Shown here: in pieces, positions 3,833 to 51,491 of the stretch
How positions within the stretch are numbered: the first letter of the stretch is position 1
How the letters are laid out: each line of letters starts with the position of its first letter
From: a virus
Reading direction: 5' to 3' (one strand)
Length of the DNA stretch: 64,000 bases
UHGV virus genome: UHGV-0351052
Made by a program: the position numbers and the translations under genes
Notes under the pieces: model-generated
Told to the model about the DNA's origin: nothing
The model's input: only the letters and a program-made list of their open reading frames with translations
Databases searched by the model: none

Positions 3833-6800
3833 CAGTAAAAGCACCTTCAGTCACTAGTCTCAGAATTTCCAAGTTATCCGCAAATCAGGTGCAAGTACGC
3901 TGGGATGACGTTGGTGCTAATTTCTACTATTTTGTAGAAATCGCTGAGACAAAAACAGACTCGGGGGAAAATCTCCCGAGTAATCAATACCGATGGATTA
4001 ATTTAGGATATACTGCAAATAACAGCTTCTTTTTTGATGATGCTGATCCATTAACAACATACATTATTAGAGTAGCTACAGCTGCGCAAGATTTTGAGCA
4101 GTCTGATTGGATTTATACCGAAGAGTTTGAAACTTTTGCTACGAATGCTTACACATTTCAAAATATGATTGAAATGCAATTAGCTAATAAATTCATTCAG
4201 GAAAAATTTACTCTTAACAATTCTAATTATGTCAATTTTAATAATGACACTATAATGGCTGCATTGATGAATGAATCGTTTCAATTCAGCCCATCATATG
4301 CTGATGTCTCATCAATCAGTAATTTTATTATTGGCGAAAATGAGTATCATGAAATACAAGGTTCCATTCAGCAAGTGTGTAAGGATATTAACCGAGTTTA
4401 TTTGATGGAATCAGAAGGGATTCTATATCTTTTTGAGCGCTATCAGCCTGTAGTTAAAGTATCTAATGATAAAGGACAAACCTGGAAAGCTGTGAAGCTC
4501 TTCAATGACCGTGTAGGATATCCTTTATCTAAGACAGTATATTACCAATCTGCGAACACAACATACGTTCTAGGATACGACAAGATTTTCTACGGCCGTA
4601 AATCAACTGATGTTAGATGGTCAGCTGATGATGTCAGATTTAGTTCGCAGGATATAACATTTGCTAAACTTGGTGATCAACTTCATTTGGGATTTGATGT
4701 TGAAATCTTTGGTACTTATGCTACATTACCTGCAAATGTATACCGCATTGCAGAAGCTATTACTTGCACCGATGATTACATTTACGTTGTCGCCAGAGAC
4801 AAAGTTAGATACATAAAAACGAGTAATGCACCTATAGATTCTGATCCATTGTCTCCAACATATTCGGAAAGACTTTTTGAACCTGATACAATGACTATAA
4901 CCGGAAATCCTAAAGCAGTATGCTATAAAATGGATTCTATCGGTGATAAAGTTTTTGCTCTTATTATTGGTGAAGTTGAAACATTAAATGCTAATCCTAG
5001 AACATCAAAAATAATTGATTCTGCTGATAAAGGAATATATGTTTTAAATCATGACACGAAAACATGGAAAAGAGTTTTTGGCAACACTGAAGAAGAAAGA
5101 AGACGTATTCAACCTGGATATGCGAATATGTCAACTGATGGTAAATTAGTTTCTCTGTCTTCGAGTAATTTTAAATTTTTAAGTGATAACGTTGTTAATG
5201 ACCCTGAAACTGCAGCGAAATATCAGTTAATCGGTGCTGTTAAATATGAATTTCCTCGTGAATGGCTAGCCGATAAGCATTATCATATGATGGCATTTAT
5301 AGCAGATGAAAAATCTGATTGGGAAACTTTTACGCCTCAACCGATGAAATATTATGCAGAACCATTCTTTAACTGGTCTAAAAAATCTAACACACGTTGT
5401 TGGATAAACAACTCTGACAGAGCTGTAGTAGTTTATGCTGATTTAAAATACACTAAAGTTATAGAAAATATTCCGGAAACATCGCCAGATAGATTAGTTC
5501 ATGAATACTGGGATGATGGTGATTGTACGATAGTAATGCCAAATGTTAAATTCACAGGATTTAAAAAATATGCGTCTGGGATGCTTTTTTATAAATCTTC
5601 TGGTGAAATAATTTCTTACTATGATTTTAACTATCGAGTGAGAGACACGGTTGAAATAATTTGGAAGCCAACTGGAATATTTTTAAAAGCATTTTTACAA
5701 AACCAAGAGCGTGAAACTCCTTGGTCACCAGAAGAAGAGCATGGATTAGCTGACCCTGATTTAAGACCATTGATTGGCACAATGATGCCTGATTCTTATT
5801 TACTACAAGATTCGAATTTTGAGGCATTTTGCGAAGCATATATTCAGTATCTTTCTGATGGATATGGAACTCAGTATAACAATTTACGAAATTTAATTCG
5901 TAATCAGTATCCACGAGAAGAGCATGCATGGGAATATTTGTGGTCAGAGATATATAAAAGAAACATTTATTTGAACGCGGATAAGCGAGATGCTGTAGCA
6001 AGATTTTTTGAATCACGTAGCTATGATTTTTATTCTACTAAAGGAATTGAAGCATCATACAAGTTTCTTTTTAAAGTTCTTTATAATGAAGAAGTTGAAA
6101 TTGAAATTGAATCTGGGGCTGGTACTGAATATGACATAATCGTTCAATCTGATTCTTTGACTGAAGATTTAGTAGGACAAACGATTTATACAGCCACAGG
6201 AAGATGTAATGTTACTTATATAGAAAGAAGCTATTCTAATGGTAAATTGCAATGGACCGTAACTATTCATAATCTTTTGGGAAGATTAATTGCTGGTCAA
6301 GAAGTTAAAGCAGAAAGACTCCCTAGTTTTGAAGGCGAAATTATTCGTGGAGTTAAAGGAAAGGATTTGCTTCAAAACAATATAGACTATATTAATAGAA
6401 GTAGATCATACTATGTAATGAAAATTAAATCCAATTTACCTTCTTCCCGCTGGAAATCTGACGTTATTCGTTTTGTTCATCCAGTAGGATTTGGATTTAT
6501 AGCAATTACCCTTTTAACGATGTTTATTAATGTTGGTTTAACTCTTAAACATACAGAGACTATAATTAATAAATACAAAAACTATAAATGGGATTCTGGA
6601 TTGCCTACTGAATATGCTGATAGAGTAGCTAAATTAACTCCAACCGGTGAAATTGAGCATGATTCAGTAACAGGCGAAGCAATTTATGAGCCTGGCCCAA
6701 TGGCTGGTGTAGAATATCCTCTTCCTAATGACTATAATGCTGAAAATAATAATTCAATATTTCAAGGTCAATTGCCTTCTGAACGACGCAAGTTAATGAG

Positions 6801-46663: not shown

Positions 46664-46685
46664 AAATTAAAGGCCCGAAGGCCTT
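46661..46685 (-). terminator. Terminator hairpin downstream of the gene 30 unit (minus strand)
   Basis: AAGGCC-UUCG-GGCCUU followed by T-rich tract on minus strand. Confidence 0.6.
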
Positions 46686-46873
46686 TAGTAATCTAGTGGT
46701 AAGAGAGTACGATATATTTCAAACTTTGGACCTTTTTCATAGGCATCAAATGTTTCTGTGAATTTATTATAAGCATATGCATCTACAAATTCGAGAATGA
46801 CTTGTGATACAGAAGTAGAAACATCTCCACCTTCTTTTTGAGCAATGACAATTGTTTCTAAGTAAGCTTTCAT
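46685..46873 (-). CDS. Small hypothetical protein translationally coupled to DNA ligase gene
   Basis: 62-aa ORF; ATG overlaps gp30 stop (ATGA). Confidence 0.55.
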   Translation of the reverse strand: MKAYLETIVIAQKEGGDVSTSVSQVILEFVDAYAYNKFTETFDAYEKGPKFEIYRTLLPLDY

Positions 46874-48333
46874 AAACCAGTTACCTCATGAAAATCACCA
46901 AATACATCTTCGAACGTATTAGCTTTAGTTTTATCTTCGCGTAAACGAATCGCAATCGGAAGAAATAATTTAACGTAATCAGTGCGGCCATCAGATTTTA
47001 ACCAACCGTTGCATTCGCACTCTAGAATTTTTCCAATATAATAATTTTGGTTTTCCATAATGCGAGTACGGTCAAGTTCATGCGATTTTACACCGGCTTT
47101 ATCTTTTAAGCCTGAACCAGCATTTACTTTAATTTTTCCACATTCTGATTCAAGAATAAATCCACCCGCTTTAGTAGGGTCTTTGCGGTGAGGATAAATT
47201 CCTACAATTTTTAAATCAACATCAATTACTTCTTTAAATTTATAGAGATTTTTTGAACGAGCATTTTCCCATAATCCATCGATATTTTTGAGAATAATAC
47301 CTTCAAGACCTTGGTCAATATACTTTTTATAAATTACCTTAGCTTCATCTAGGTTATTTACTACCTGGTTTTCAATTAAAATTACTTTATCATATCCTGA
47401 TGTCATTTGTTCTAGTTTAGAAAAACGTACATCATATTTTAAACGAAACGCTGGAAGACCGTATATTTCTACCAACGGGACATAATCCCAGACCTGAAAC
47501 TTCATGCATTGAGCTTCTTTTTCAGAAATGGTTCCCTTTAAAGATTTATTGGCGATTCCATTAGAAGTAGTACGAGATTCCGCTACTTCGGCGAATTCTT
47601 TAGCTTTACTAATTTCAGGATAAGCATCAAAAAGAAAATCTAGGCCTTCTGGTTCCTTTTTAACTTGCTCATGGTATACCAATTCGCCATCAATTAACAC
47701 ACCTTCTGGATGAATCTGGCGGGCTTCAGCAGTCATTTTGATTAATTCTTCCTTAAGAAGATCTAATCCTAGATATTCATTACCAGCTCGTGATAAAAGA
47801 CGAACATCATCTAATTCATCGCCTCGGACTTCAGCAAAACACCGGGCTCCATCTGCTTTTAACTGTGCAAAGGCTGGAAATTTGATATTCTTACTAATGC
47901 CTTTTTCATCATAAGAACTTGCCAGCATTTGAGGTTGTTCAGGAATTAAACCTGGCCAAACTTTGTTTGCAATAGATACTGAAGCACCGCATTCAAGATC
48001 TCGCATCATCACTCGACGCAAAACTTCAACATCATCCTTTTTACCATCAGTGATATATCCAGTTAATTCCTCAATTGCAGCATTTCCAGTCAATTTCCGA
48101 GTAGCTAACGTGAATTCAATGAAGTCAAGCATATCGGTAATAGTCAGCATTCCAAAACTCTGGGTAGCAATACCAGGTTTAGGCCATTTCTTGATATAAT
48201 ACTGCAACCCACGAGAATAAGTTAGACGATATACTCGTTTAAGCAATTCATTATCTTTATTCTTTTCAAGAATTGCTTGCTTCTGCTTAGTTGAACCAAT
48301 AGATGCTATTTCGTTCAGAATTTTAAGAATCAT
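46870..48333 (-). CDS. 30: ATP-dependent DNA ligase gp30
   Basis: 487 aa; begins MILKILNEIASIGSTKQKQAILEKNKDNELLKRVY, adenylation motif in AQLKADGARC; matches T4 DNA ligase. Confidence 0.95.
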   Translation of the reverse strand: MILKILNEIASIGSTKQKQAILEKNKDNELLKRVYRLTYSRGLQYYIKKWPKPGIATQSFGMLTITDMLDFIEFTLATRKLTGNAAIEELTGYITDGKKDDVEVLRRVMMRDLECGASVSIANKVWPGLIPEQPQMLASSYDEKGISKNIKFPAFAQLKADGARCFAEVRGDELDDVRLLSRAGNEYLGLDLLKEELIKMTAEARQIHPEGVLIDGELVYHEQVKKEPEGLDFLFDAYPEISKAKEFAEVAESRTTSNGIANKSLKGTISEKEAQCMKFQVWDYVPLVEIYGLPAFRLKYDVRFSKLEQMTSGYDKVILIENQVVNNLDEAKVIYKKYIDQGLEGIILKNIDGLWENARSKNLYKFKEVIDVDLKIVGIYPHRKDPTKAGGFILESECGKIKVNAGSGLKDKAGVKSHELDRTRIMENQNYYIGKILECECNGWLKSDGRTDYVKLFLPIAIRLREDKTKANTFEDVFGDFHEVTGL

Positions 48334-48599
48334 TATTCATCCTTCAGAGTTTGGTTTACAGCTCTATTATAAATCAATTCATCATTAAGCTCAGTCAAAG
48401 ACTTATGATATGTGGTTCTAACTTTATTTCCTTGCATCCAGTGCTTGATATAAATGAAACCTTGCTCTACACATTTTTTAAAAATTCGTTCATCTTTTTG
48501 AGCTCGGAATTCTGGATTGCATCTAAAAAATTGATTTACGTGACCGTAATCACGTGTAGTATTACCTTCATTTTCATAAATAGTGTGAACGACAAACAT
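48333..48599 (-). CDS. Hypothetical protein (30.1-like position)
   Basis: 88-aa ORF immediately upstream of ligase. Confidence 0.6.
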   Translation of the reverse strand: MFVVHTIYENEGNTTRDYGHVNQFFRCNPEFRAQKDERIFKKCVEQGFIYIKHWMQGNKVRTTYHKSLTELNDELIYNRAVNQTLKDE

Positions 48600-49438
48600 T
48601 AGAATGCTCCTTGGAAAATATTATTAGCACCAGTAGGTCTATTATACAAATACTCTATGCCACCGGGTTTAATATAGTTCCATGTCTGAAACGGATGCGT
48701 CTGATATGGATGATATAGATGATTATAAGGATTAAATCCAGGAGTTCTCCAGGTAGTGTTCCAAGGAAAAGAATTGTTTTTGATCATCTTTTCAATTACA
48801 TCTTTTATAGCTTTTTCACTATCAAAACTTTCTTTATTTTCCTTCGATGGAAAAAGCTTATTCTCTACATCGTTCCATGTATAAACTCGCTGAGCAGTTT
48901 TTGGAATACTGTCACGTTCCCCTCGAGCCATCCAATAAACAGGAACACTTAATATTTCACTCGCGTGATCGCAGTGGTGAGCGAGATCGTCAATATAACA
49001 AATTACGTTATATTTCTCTTTTGCCTTTTTGAACAACTCTTCTTTTGAAGAATCATGACCACACATCATTACTTCTGAGAAGGCACCAGGAAAAAGAGCA
49101 TTCAAATTAAATTGACGATTCAACAGAGCGTCAATAGAATCACCCAATGCTGTAACAGCAACAAAATTATAATCTTCTTTTAATTTGTTAATTACACATA
49201 GAGCATCTTTATACGGAGACAAGTAACGAATAAAATCTGAACGATTGTATTTTTCAATTAACTTGACGCCAAGTTCTTCATCACAATTAAAGAGTTTACC
49301 AGGAGAAATAAATTTCTCATCTTGGATCATTTTTAAAATATGTTCTAATGGAAGATTATATTTCTGAGCAAAATAAGGAAGGCCTGATTGCCAGCTTAAA
49401 CATACTCCATCAATATCAGTTAAAATAGTAGGCTTCAT
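48599..49438 (-). CDS. HAD-superfamily-like hydrolase with aromatic/Pro-rich C-terminal extension (30.2-like position)
   Basis: 279 aa; N-terminal LTDIDGV (HAD motif I-like DxDGx) and later YIDD; C-terminal 80 aa rich in W/Y/P/N. Confidence 0.6.
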   Translation of the reverse strand: MKPTILTDIDGVCLSWQSGLPYFAQKYNLPLEHILKMIQDEKFISPGKLFNCDEELGVKLIEKYNRSDFIRYLSPYKDALCVINKLKEDYNFVAVTALGDSIDALLNRQFNLNALFPGAFSEVMMCGHDSSKEELFKKAKEKYNVICYIDDLAHHCDHASEILSVPVYWMARGERDSIPKTAQRVYTWNDVENKLFPSKENKESFDSEKAIKDVIEKMIKNNSFPWNTTWRTPGFNPYNHLYHPYQTHPFQTWNYIKPGGIEYLYNRPTGANNIFQGAF

Positions 49439-49899
49439 AGAGAGTCTCTTAATAGGTTTAACACATCAATAAATTCAGCTTCGGTTAGTATTGTATCATC
49501 TTTTGTTAGACCACTAGCCATGCTGTGCTTCAAAACTTTTCCTTTCGAGGCTTGTAATGCATCACGAAAGCCCTTGTTTTGGATCGCTGCTTCAAAATAT
49601 GCATTTGTGTATAATTCTTTCCACGCCGGGGAGTATCTTGAAAACGGAACTCCAAGCCAGAAGAGGGTCCCACGGTCCTGAGCTCTAGCATAAGACCTTC
49701 CAGCTTGTTGGGCGGCAATCCCGGATAACCCAAATATACGACGTTGTTGTTCAGCATTTTTCACCTTACATCCTTGAAGGAATCCTTCGAGACCTCCAAA
49801 TTGGATACCATCCATAACGAAAGGCCATTGGGCGAAATTGCTTAATGCACATGATGGCCATCTAAAATTGCTTCTTATTTCTAGCTCAGACATTTTCAA
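49435..49899 (-). CDS. NADAR / YbiA-like domain protein (30.3-like position)
   Basis: 154 aa; segment LSNFAQWPFVMDGIQFGGLEGFLQGCKV parallels the YbiA/NADAR core FSNFAAWPIKVDGKTWPTSEHYFQAQKF as I recall it. Confidence 0.6.
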   Translation of the reverse strand: MKMSELEIRSNFRWPSCALSNFAQWPFVMDGIQFGGLEGFLQGCKVKNAEQQRRIFGLSGIAAQQAGRSYARAQDRGTLFWLGVPFSRYSPAWKELYTNAYFEAAIQNKGFRDALQASKGKVLKHSMASGLTKDDTILTEAEFIDVLNLLRDSL

Positions 49900-50092
49900 T
49901 ACTTATAATTTCAACATCAGCCCAATGACCATAGCAAGGAAGACGAAATTCAACTGGCCAGTTAGGGTCCTTTTCTAATATAATAGACTTAACTTGTGGT
50001 TCTTCATGTTCATCGGTATATGGATTTTTATCTGTTACTTTATATGTGACCTTAATGTACTGAATTCCAAAAATCTTATTAATTATATTCAT
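49886..50092 (-). CDS. Hypothetical small protein
   Basis: 68-aa ORF in tightly packed overlapping minus-strand array. Confidence 0.5.
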   Translation of the reverse strand: MNIINKIFGIQYIKVTYKVTDKNPYTDEHEEPQVKSIILEKDPNWPVEFRLPCYGHWADVEIISIENV

Positions 50093-51048: not shown

Positions 51049-51381
51049 TTATTTTACTACTTTCCAGTGCTTCATGTCAAGTTTACCAACTTTTTTCATC
51101 TTCTCAATTAAGCGTTCGGCACGTTGGCGAGCTGTAACATAATGCCATTCACCTAATTCATTTTGTTCAATTTTTCCAACGATTACTGTATTCAATTCAT
51201 AAATCCAACCAGTAAAGAAATTATGAACTTGAATTGTAAAGGTGAAATCTGTTCCCATACCTTCTGCTGTTTCTACTTCAATAATATCACCTTCAACTGC
51301 CATTAAGAACCACATAGTTTCATCATATTTACCATTGAAGCATTTAGTTTTAACTGTAGCGTTCAGATTAATCGTTTTCAT
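51049..51381 (-). CDS. Hypothetical protein
   Basis: 110-aa ORF. Confidence 0.55.
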   Translation of the reverse strand: MKTINLNATVKTKCFNGKYDETMWFLMAVEGDIIEVETAEGMGTDFTFTIQVHNFFTGWIYELNTVIVGKIEQNELGEWHYVTARQRAERLIEKMKKVGKLDMKHWKVVK

Positions 51382-51460: not shown

Positions 51461-51486
51461 ATAAAAAAGGACTCCCGAAGGAGTCC
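51461..51486 (-). terminator. Strong intrinsic terminator (minus strand): GGACUCC-UUCG-GGAGUCC + U6
   Basis: Perfect 7-bp stem, UUCG loop, followed by TTTTTTAT on minus strand. Confidence 0.8.
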
Positions 51487-51491
51487 TCAAC

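Follow-up and report, generated by a model that had tools for sequence, protein, structure and literature searches.

The 64,000-nucleotide (nt) stretch of viral DNA analysed here (UHGV virus genome UHGV-0351052; hereafter the window) contains an open reading frame (ORF) that combines an apparent HAD-type catalytic motif with an unusual C-terminus rich in aromatic residues and proline, and the question arises which reaction such a phage protein would catalyse and what its tail could be good for. The 279-aa ORF has an ATG start, lies on the minus strand and occupies 48599..49438 exactly; the protein begins with MKPTILTDIDGV and ends with NNSFPWNTTWRTPGFNPYNHLYHPYQTHPFQTWNYIKPGGIEYLYNRPTGANNIFQGAF, so that the ORF listing of the window bears out both the position and the two termini quoted in an initial annotation of this locus. 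From our point of view, the gene is the ortholog of T4 gene 30.2, and the chances are about even that its product, gp30.2, is a HAD nucleotide monophosphatase with a flexible tether whose short motif docks onto a phage or host partner, a reading built on sequence comparison and structural modelling.

By its sequence, the ORF is gp30.2 of a Tequatrovirus and belongs to the orthologous group PHROG 420/T4 gp30.2, since it shares 96% amino acid identity with T4 gene 30.2 (NP_049815, annotated 'hypothetical protein') and lies in the same 30.3-30.2-30.1-30 gene order as in T4. Its DNA is 97-98% identical to that of many T4-like phages of Escherichia, Shigella and Yersinia, and PHROG 420 ('unknown function') matches the window protein over its full length (E = 2e-93). 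The gene can be regarded as real because it is present in >1000 phage records, because the ratio of nonsynonymous to synonymous substitution rates (dN/dS) is below 1 in the core and in the tail alike, because all length variants differ by multiples of three, and because T4 gp30.2 (UniProt P32275) has a protein-level expression class, which means that it is made during infection; T4 30.2 belongs to the early class by its RNA and to the middle class by its protein, as do ligase and 30.1 (PMC9697503 supplement). PADLOC defence-system models gave no match. A functional study of '30.2' or 'gp30.2' was not found in the literature, and some GenBank records label orthologs as '5' nucleotidase' or 'phosphatase'. 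Gene 30.2 is hence a known yet uncharacterised T4 ORF, and what is new here is a better-founded annotation.

The placement in the HAD superfamily, which the initial annotation had derived from the N-terminal DxDG, holds on every count. In an alignment of 41 homologs (A1), D8, D10, G11, K132, D150 and D151 are invariant and T96 is near-invariant, in the canonical motif order, and in 62 more distant homologs at 23-48% identity (A3), D8, D10 and K132 are still invariant and D151 is near-invariant. The pair D8/D10 aligns with motif I (DMDGV) of the cytosolic 5'(3')-deoxyribonucleotidase cdN. An AlphaFold model based on the 41-sequence alignment gives residues 1-195 a predicted local distance difference test score (pLDDT) >90 and a Rossmann-like HAD strand order, with motifs II-IV each at the expected strand end. 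In Foldseek searches of this model against the PDB, 102 matches were obtained at E <= 1e-3, the top ones being all HAD enzymes, with a probability of 1.00 for many of them; the matches include cdN, mdN (mouse/human), S. epidermidis 3bwv and YfnB, with target-normalised template-modelling (TM) scores up to 0.70. From alignments and model together, we are confident that residues 1-195 represent a HAD-superfamily fold with all four HAD motifs. Between strands 4-7 and 91-96, the model further contains the helices 16-26, 32-40, 46-49, 54-65, 68-72 and 77-86 (DSSP) of a C1 cap, which carries an invariant W16 and a near-invariant F43. In this model, the closed cap and Asp10 argue for a phosphatase that acts on a small substrate.

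Which small substrate this might be has to be judged from the nearest relatives. With the single protein or a profile of its close family, only cdN was approached among the PDB sequences (E = 1.1 and 0.022, respectively), and in this low-scoring alignment W16 and F43 stand opposite F20 and F46 of mouse cdN, which we take to be the cap phenylalanines that sandwich the base. A family profile that includes distant relatives matches 3bwv over its full length (E = 3.7e-6), followed by the Ssm1/Sdt1 pyrimidine nucleotidase and an XMP phosphatase. The Pfam family NT5C (PF06941) is matched by 26 of the 62 distant and 6 of the 41 close relatives, with a best E = 4e-10, and is not matched by the window protein even at E <= 1. 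With the NT5C enzymes (human/mouse cdN and mdN, 3bwv, PF06941), which are its best match by sequence profile as well as by fold, gp30.2 shares the HAD fold, the helical C1 cap, the DxDGV motif I and the T, K and DD motifs. In contrast, the identity to these enzymes is only 13-20%, they lack the helix and the aromatic/proline tail, and the 30.2 clade is restricted to phages. As such, gp30.2 would best be described as an outlying, phage-restricted sister clade of the NT5C nucleotidases and not as a demonstrated member. A HMMER scan of 1.84 billion representatives yielded 1418 relatives of gp30.2, and a scan of 185,579 bacterial and archaeal species genomes gave a single match, located on a phage-sized contig. 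This match (locus L086, 3001-3594; NZ_JBHSCL010000010.1) comes from a 'Flagellimonas marina' assembly, and the size and content of the 178-kb contig suggest that this bacterial assembly includes the genome of a T4-like phage.

By analogy to these relatives, a (deoxy)nucleoside monophosphate is the most likely substrate. It is also conceivable, albeit rather unlikely, that the HAD core acts on a small phosphoester other than a nucleotide, such as a sugar phosphate, a riboflavin/FMN intermediate or an ADP-ribose breakdown product: YfnB, HAD-SF-IA-v3 and haloacid dehalogenase type II also score, as would fit a generic HAD-IA enzyme, and JGI calls one ortholog 'FMN phosphatase YigB', whereas nucleotidases of the NT5C type give the best full-length profile match and the commonest Pfam match among the relatives. 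Dehalogenase activity is ruled out by the acid/base Asp10. That a viral nucleotidase can reshape nucleotide pools has a functional precedent in the early T5 enzyme Dmp, a deoxynucleoside 5'-monophosphatase that dephosphorylates deoxynucleoside monophosphates (dNMPs) (PMC12265719). Homology of gp30.2 to Dmp was considered and rejected (hhalign probability 1.2% over only 60 columns; no Pfam domain), and since the nucleotides of the host are discarded by T5 but reused by T4, the physiological role of Dmp is not necessarily a guide to that of gp30.2.

The genomic position of the gene points in another direction at first sight. In 68 of 74 T4-like loci from IMG/VR (L008-L081, match at ~4001-4600), the DNA ligase gene follows immediately downstream of the 30.2-like gene, in some cases with 30.1 or a gap of up to ~580 nt in between; the six exceptions comprise three loci with the ligase upstream and three short contigs without a ligase. 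This order holds down to ~42% core identity, and the most divergent loci (37-40%) have no nearby ligase or have it upstream, which suggests that 30.2 is an ancient quasi-core gene. One could speculate from this arrangement, and from the expression class shared with the ligase, that gp30.2 heals DNA ends as a 3'-phosphatase, comparable to the HAD phosphatase domain of T4 polynucleotide kinase/phosphatase, and would prepare nicks for the ligase while the tail binds DNA or the ligase. T4 PseT (polynucleotide kinase/3'-phosphatase) belongs to the same superfamily and the same phage, and acts in DNA and RNA end repair linked with ligases; the similarity to it is weak, consisting of a partial match to PHROG 415 'polynucleotide kinase' (E = 0.0028) and of Pnkp-type proteins in the Foldseek list for BFVD (E ~1e-5). 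However, nucleotidases outscore Pnkp by far in both sequence and fold searches, T4 already has PseT, and gene order is often conserved in T4-like genomes, which makes it weak evidence for a functional link. Furthermore, a ~70-residue helical C1 cap covers the active site in the gp30.2 model, whereas PseT-type phosphatases, which act on polynucleotide ends, are capless. HAD enzymes that act on macromolecules are reportedly capless (C0) in general, and because of the cap a polynucleotide substrate is disfavoured. Altogether, we consider a role in end healing very unlikely.

The second part of the question concerns the tail. The initial annotation had described the last about 80 residues as aromatic-rich; the enrichment is real but covers ~57 residues only, as residues 196-222 form a charged linker and a helix. 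Residues 223-279 consist of 24.6% W/Y/F, 12.3% P, 44% N/Q/S/T/G/H and 8.8% aliphatic residues, compared to 11% W/Y/F, 4% P and 29% aliphatic residues in the core, and are nearly uncharged (1 acidic and 3 basic residues), with the aromatic residues spaced every 2-5 positions. The best 60-aa stretch contains 21 W/Y/F/P, the highest count reached by any of the window's 143 ORFs with 60 aa or more (mean 11.2, standard deviation 3.6; z = 2.7), so that the composition is extreme for this genome, though not wildly so. In two AlphaFold runs, one of which used same-type tails only, the tail reached a pLDDT of 27-54 and was not predicted to dock onto the core. An analogous helix after the core is seen in other tail types too.

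Within this predicted disorder, conserved islands can be recognised, and the description of the tail as low-complexity and rich in W/Y/P/N is therefore correct as to its composition but not as to pure low complexity. In 19 homologs with the same tail type (type A; ~50% core identity), W230, E262, Y263, P268 and T269 are conserved, E262 being invariant and Y263, P268 and T269 being conserved to at least 90%, and the consensus reads G-x-G-[IVL]-E-[YW]-x-x-x-x-P-[TK]. In other tail types, the C-terminal end is formed by short hydrophobic motifs that are related or analogous to it, namely Y-[VM]-L-L-N-K-V-T-A, A-L-L-G-M and L-[RK]-A-[YF]-[YF]. The string 'LKAYF' at the C-terminus of goF was judged to be a chance occurrence. 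The predicted succession of a folded enzyme, a helix, a variable linker and a short conserved peptide resembles the architecture of a tethered linear motif. Tethered short linear motifs are found on disordered tails of T4 replication proteins, as exemplified by the clamp-binding C-termini of gp43, gp33 and gp55; gp30.2 would share with them the folded enzyme, the flexible linker and the short conserved C-terminal peptide, whereas its motif is unrelated in sequence to theirs and occurs in no other T4 protein. By such reasoning, the tail is probably a binding or targeting module, as had been proposed, in the form of a tether with a short binding motif.

The idea that the tail is a mobile module carried by other proteins was considered and rejected. 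A protein search with the T4-type tail returned only two fragments of 30.2 itself and one with the Klebsiella-type tail returned no candidates, and both are weak negatives, as the word index seems blind to such composition: the word-indexed search was nearly empty for tail queries although the collection holds full-length tail-bearing proteins. A degenerate DNA pattern for GIEYLNRQPT was found in four contigs of IMG/VR only, in each of which a 30.2 gene had already been located.

The distribution of the tail shows that it is indeed atypical for the family, most members of which comprise ~190-235 aa and have no tail. Of the 101 close homologs, 42 have <35 residues past the core, and all but ~12 of the best 150 of the 1418 representatives are 168-236 aa long, most of them 187-236 aa, so that an extension at the C-terminus could be accommodated in few of them. 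Tails occur mainly in T4-like phages of Enterobacterales; they comprise 40-147 residues and belong to several types that cannot be aligned with one another. The 30.2 of Dhakavirus has 212 aa and directly abuts 30.1; with the genes abutting, there is no room for a tail encoded by a separate ORF in tail-less phages, and this idea was discarded. Within Tequatrovirus, the allele spans 837, 840, 843, 855 or 864 nt, all indels being in frame, and the tail of phage FL12 carries a 24-nt tandem duplication that corresponds to an eight-residue unit from the NPY/HPY-rich stretch. Tandem repeats in the tail DNA (24 nt x 2.3 copies in FL12, L002 1907-1962; 9- and 15-nt units at 48684-48723 of the window) explain this in-frame length polymorphism. 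According to sequence and model, the tail is a lineage-specific, fast-evolving and predicted disordered accessory that occurs in some relatives only.

Such a distribution would also be expected if the tail had no function of its own: drift of the stop codon and slippage during replication would have generated it in the short interval that separates two genes coupled in translation, and being a harmless disordered appendix, it would have been tolerated. This alternative is less probable in our opinion, yet it keeps appreciable weight. The tail is missing from many orthologs and lineages, is hypervariable in length and sequence with expansion of tandem repeats, lacks its last four residues in FL12 and evolves 5-10 times faster than the core, and no phenotype is known for gene 30.2. 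However, dN/dS (Nei-Gojobori) in the tail is 0.21-0.34, compared to 0.01-0.08 in the core, and lies well under 1, and every indel is in frame; the tail is therefore translated and constrained, although by weak purifying selection. Moreover, the five tail residues named above are conserved among the 19 type-A homologs despite their ~50% core identity, and a related motif, Y-L-N-[RK]-x-(P)-T-A, is retained at the C-terminus of different tail types.

Taking up again the reading of a tethered nucleotidase, one can imagine the following mechanism. Residues 1-195 would act as a Mg2+-dependent phosphomonoesterase, in which Asp8 forms the phospho-aspartyl intermediate, Asp10 serves as general acid/base, and Thr96, Lys132 and Asp150/Asp151 complete the phosphate and metal site. 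The closed helical C1 cap would limit the enzyme to small substrates, and a (deoxy)nucleoside monophosphate could be held between the cap aromatics W16 and F43. Residues 196-279 would represent an accessory extension outside the catalytic machinery, composed of an amphipathic helix and a disordered aromatic/proline-rich tether, whose final conserved peptide G-G-I-E-Y-L-Y-N-R-P-T most plausibly docks the enzyme onto a phage or host partner.

Several points weigh against this proposal. Substrate specificity in the HAD superfamily is not reliably readable from sequence, and T4 recycles host dNMPs, with no role of a dNMP phosphatase known to us in this phage. None of the Pfam and NCBIfam models matches the window protein at E <= 0.01, so that the link to NT5C rests on intermediate sequences, profile searches and the fold. 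As for the tail, no partner was found, its motif is eroded in close relatives (AGYFNRLT in SV76, a phage of the T2 type, and in phage FL12), and neither the motif nor a similar aromatic tail was found elsewhere in the window or in any other part of the T4 genome. Finally, transposon insertions in T4 30.2 caused no change in fitness in LB, in M9 or in the presence of DarTG1 (10.1101/2025.11.20.689424).

The latter data stem from the HIDEN-SEQ transposon analysis of T4 (preprint 10.1101/2025.11.20.689424, Extended Data Table 6), in which insertions were tolerated at 72 of 72 TA sites of 30.2 and were neutral in minimal medium (log2 fold change, log2FC, -0.10). Gene 30.2 is hence dispensable in laboratory hosts. 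The same data set bears on the immediate neighbour of the gene. AdfN (gp30.3) is a NADAR DNA ADP-ribosylglycohydrolase that defeats DarTG1, and Johannesman et al. found it to be fully effective only in T-even infections, so that it probably needs another phage factor (PMC11825919). The ATGA overlap of 30.3 and 30.2 and the fact that roughly 30 of the 74 loci have a homolog of 30.3 upstream make it tempting to see in gp30.2 this T-even factor or a part of a DNA de-ADP-ribosylation module. Under DarTG1, however, insertions in 30.2 were neutral (log2FC -0.12, p = 0.61) while those in 30.3 were lost (log2FC -7.25, adjusted p = 0), and in the 74 loci the presence of the tail does not follow that of 30.3. 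A partnership of gp30.2 with AdfN is largely refuted by the neutral insertions, and the probability that remains for it is minimal.

Besides 30.3, gene 30.4 (~49886-50092 of the window) was the only other significant gene under DarTG1 (log2FC -1.79, adjusted p = 0.014; HIDEN-SEQ sheet S6), which could mean either that 30.4 truly contributes or that the insertions are polar on 30.3. Passages of the main text on the DarTG1 screen discuss only 30.3/adfN (10.1101/2025.11.20.689424).

A more far-reaching idea is that the hypervariable tail is an adaptor facing the host or its defences, whose short motif at the C-terminus would bring the nucleotidase to a specific host or phage complex, where the enzyme would remove a nucleotide-derived molecule locally, e.g. 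a mis-modified dNMP, a phosphorylated immune signal or a by-product. Its version involving AdfN and DarTG1 is refuted by the neutrality of 30.2 insertions. We retain the general form as a long shot because the tail diversifies among phages of different enterobacterial hosts, motif islands are retained and few laboratory conditions have been screened. If true, 30.2 would be a conditionally essential gene for counter-defence or pool editing, with a tail that co-evolves with its target according to host range.

The features of the gene and its neighbours are compiled in Table 1.

Table 1. Position of gene 30.2, its parts and the adjacent genes in the window
Feature	Position	Strand	Basis
Complete coding sequence, T4 30.2 ortholog, 279 aa + stop	48599..49438 (stop codon 48599-48601)	minus	ORF listing, T4 identity, PHROG 420
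HAD catalytic core with C1 cap, residues 1-195 (predicted fold)	48854..49438	minus	pLDDT >90, Foldseek, conserved in 1418 representative clusters
HAD motif I, D8-I-D10-G-V12 (putative nucleophile Asp8, acid/base Asp10)	49403..49417	minus	Alignments A1 and A3; cdN DMDGV
Helical C1 cap between motifs I and II, residues 16-86	49181..49393	minus	DSSP helices of the model
HAD motif II, Thr96 (VAVTALG)	49151..49153	minus	Nearly invariant in A1; end of strand 91-96
HAD motif III, Lys132	49043..49045	minus	Invariant in A1, A2 and A3
HAD motif IV, Asp150-Asp151 (YIDDL)	48986..48991	minus	Invariant in A1; end of strand 145-150
Charged linker and amphipathic helix, residues 196-222 (helix 207-221)	48773..48853	minus	Helix pLDDT ~86
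Aromatic/proline-rich, predicted disordered tail, residues 223-279	48602..48772	minus	pLDDT, composition, dN/dS, repeats
Conserved tail motif, I261-E-Y-L-Y-N-R-P-T269	48632..48658	minus	19 tail-type-A homologs
Gene 30.3 = adfN (NADAR DNA ADP-ribosylglycohydrolase), upstream, 4-nt overlap with 30.2 start (ATGA)	49435..49899	minus	Pfam Phage_30_3, E = 1e-69
Gene 30.1 (DUF3045), downstream, start overlaps 30.2 stop (TAATG)	48333..48599	minus	Pfam DUF3045, E = 4e-64
DNA ligase gene 30, downstream	46870..48333	minus	ORF listing, T4 annotation, synteny table

Unlike the truncated 30.3 of RB69, the 30.3 gene of the window has its full length (154 aa); its product shows a YbiA-like S-N-F-A-x-W-P...D-G motif and a weak match to 2b3w (E = 1.4). 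Inside 30.3, a 75-aa ORF in another frame (49530-49757, minus strand) is open here and corresponds to T4 30.3' ('internal translation in a different reading frame'). Upstream of 30.7, a strong, near-consensus sigma-70-like promoter is present (51051-51080, minus strand; TTGACA, 18-nt spacer, TAAAAT), and terminator-like sites consisting of a hairpin and a T-run (51467-51488 and 46668-46687, both minus strand) flank the block from 30.7 to alt.1, an arrangement that suggests one early transcription unit holding 30.2 and the ligase. In a contig assembled from SRR21148734 (Logan; L007 234-1142), the 302-aa protein P0014 consists of a 30.2 HAD core without a tail that is fused in frame to 30.1 (DUF3045). 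If real, this fusion would hint, in the sense of a Rosetta-stone protein, at a joint action of 30.2 and 30.1; known from a single read-assembly contig of 1.4 kb, it is indistinguishable from an artefact and was not accepted as natural.

Overall, the present analysis represents a modest improvement in annotation rather than a discovery, unless a partner or a conditional phenotype emerges. About 100 genes of T4 are still without a function, and 30.2 is among the larger and more widely conserved ones, located beside the ligase in almost all T4-like phages examined. Its placement near the NT5C-like small-molecule phosphatases leads to a concrete and cheap assay, and its exclusion as the missing cofactor of AdfN removes one tempting hypothesis. 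Lastly, the tail of gp30.2 may serve as a natural example of how a viral enzyme gains, diversifies and loses a disordered appendage with a short conserved motif.

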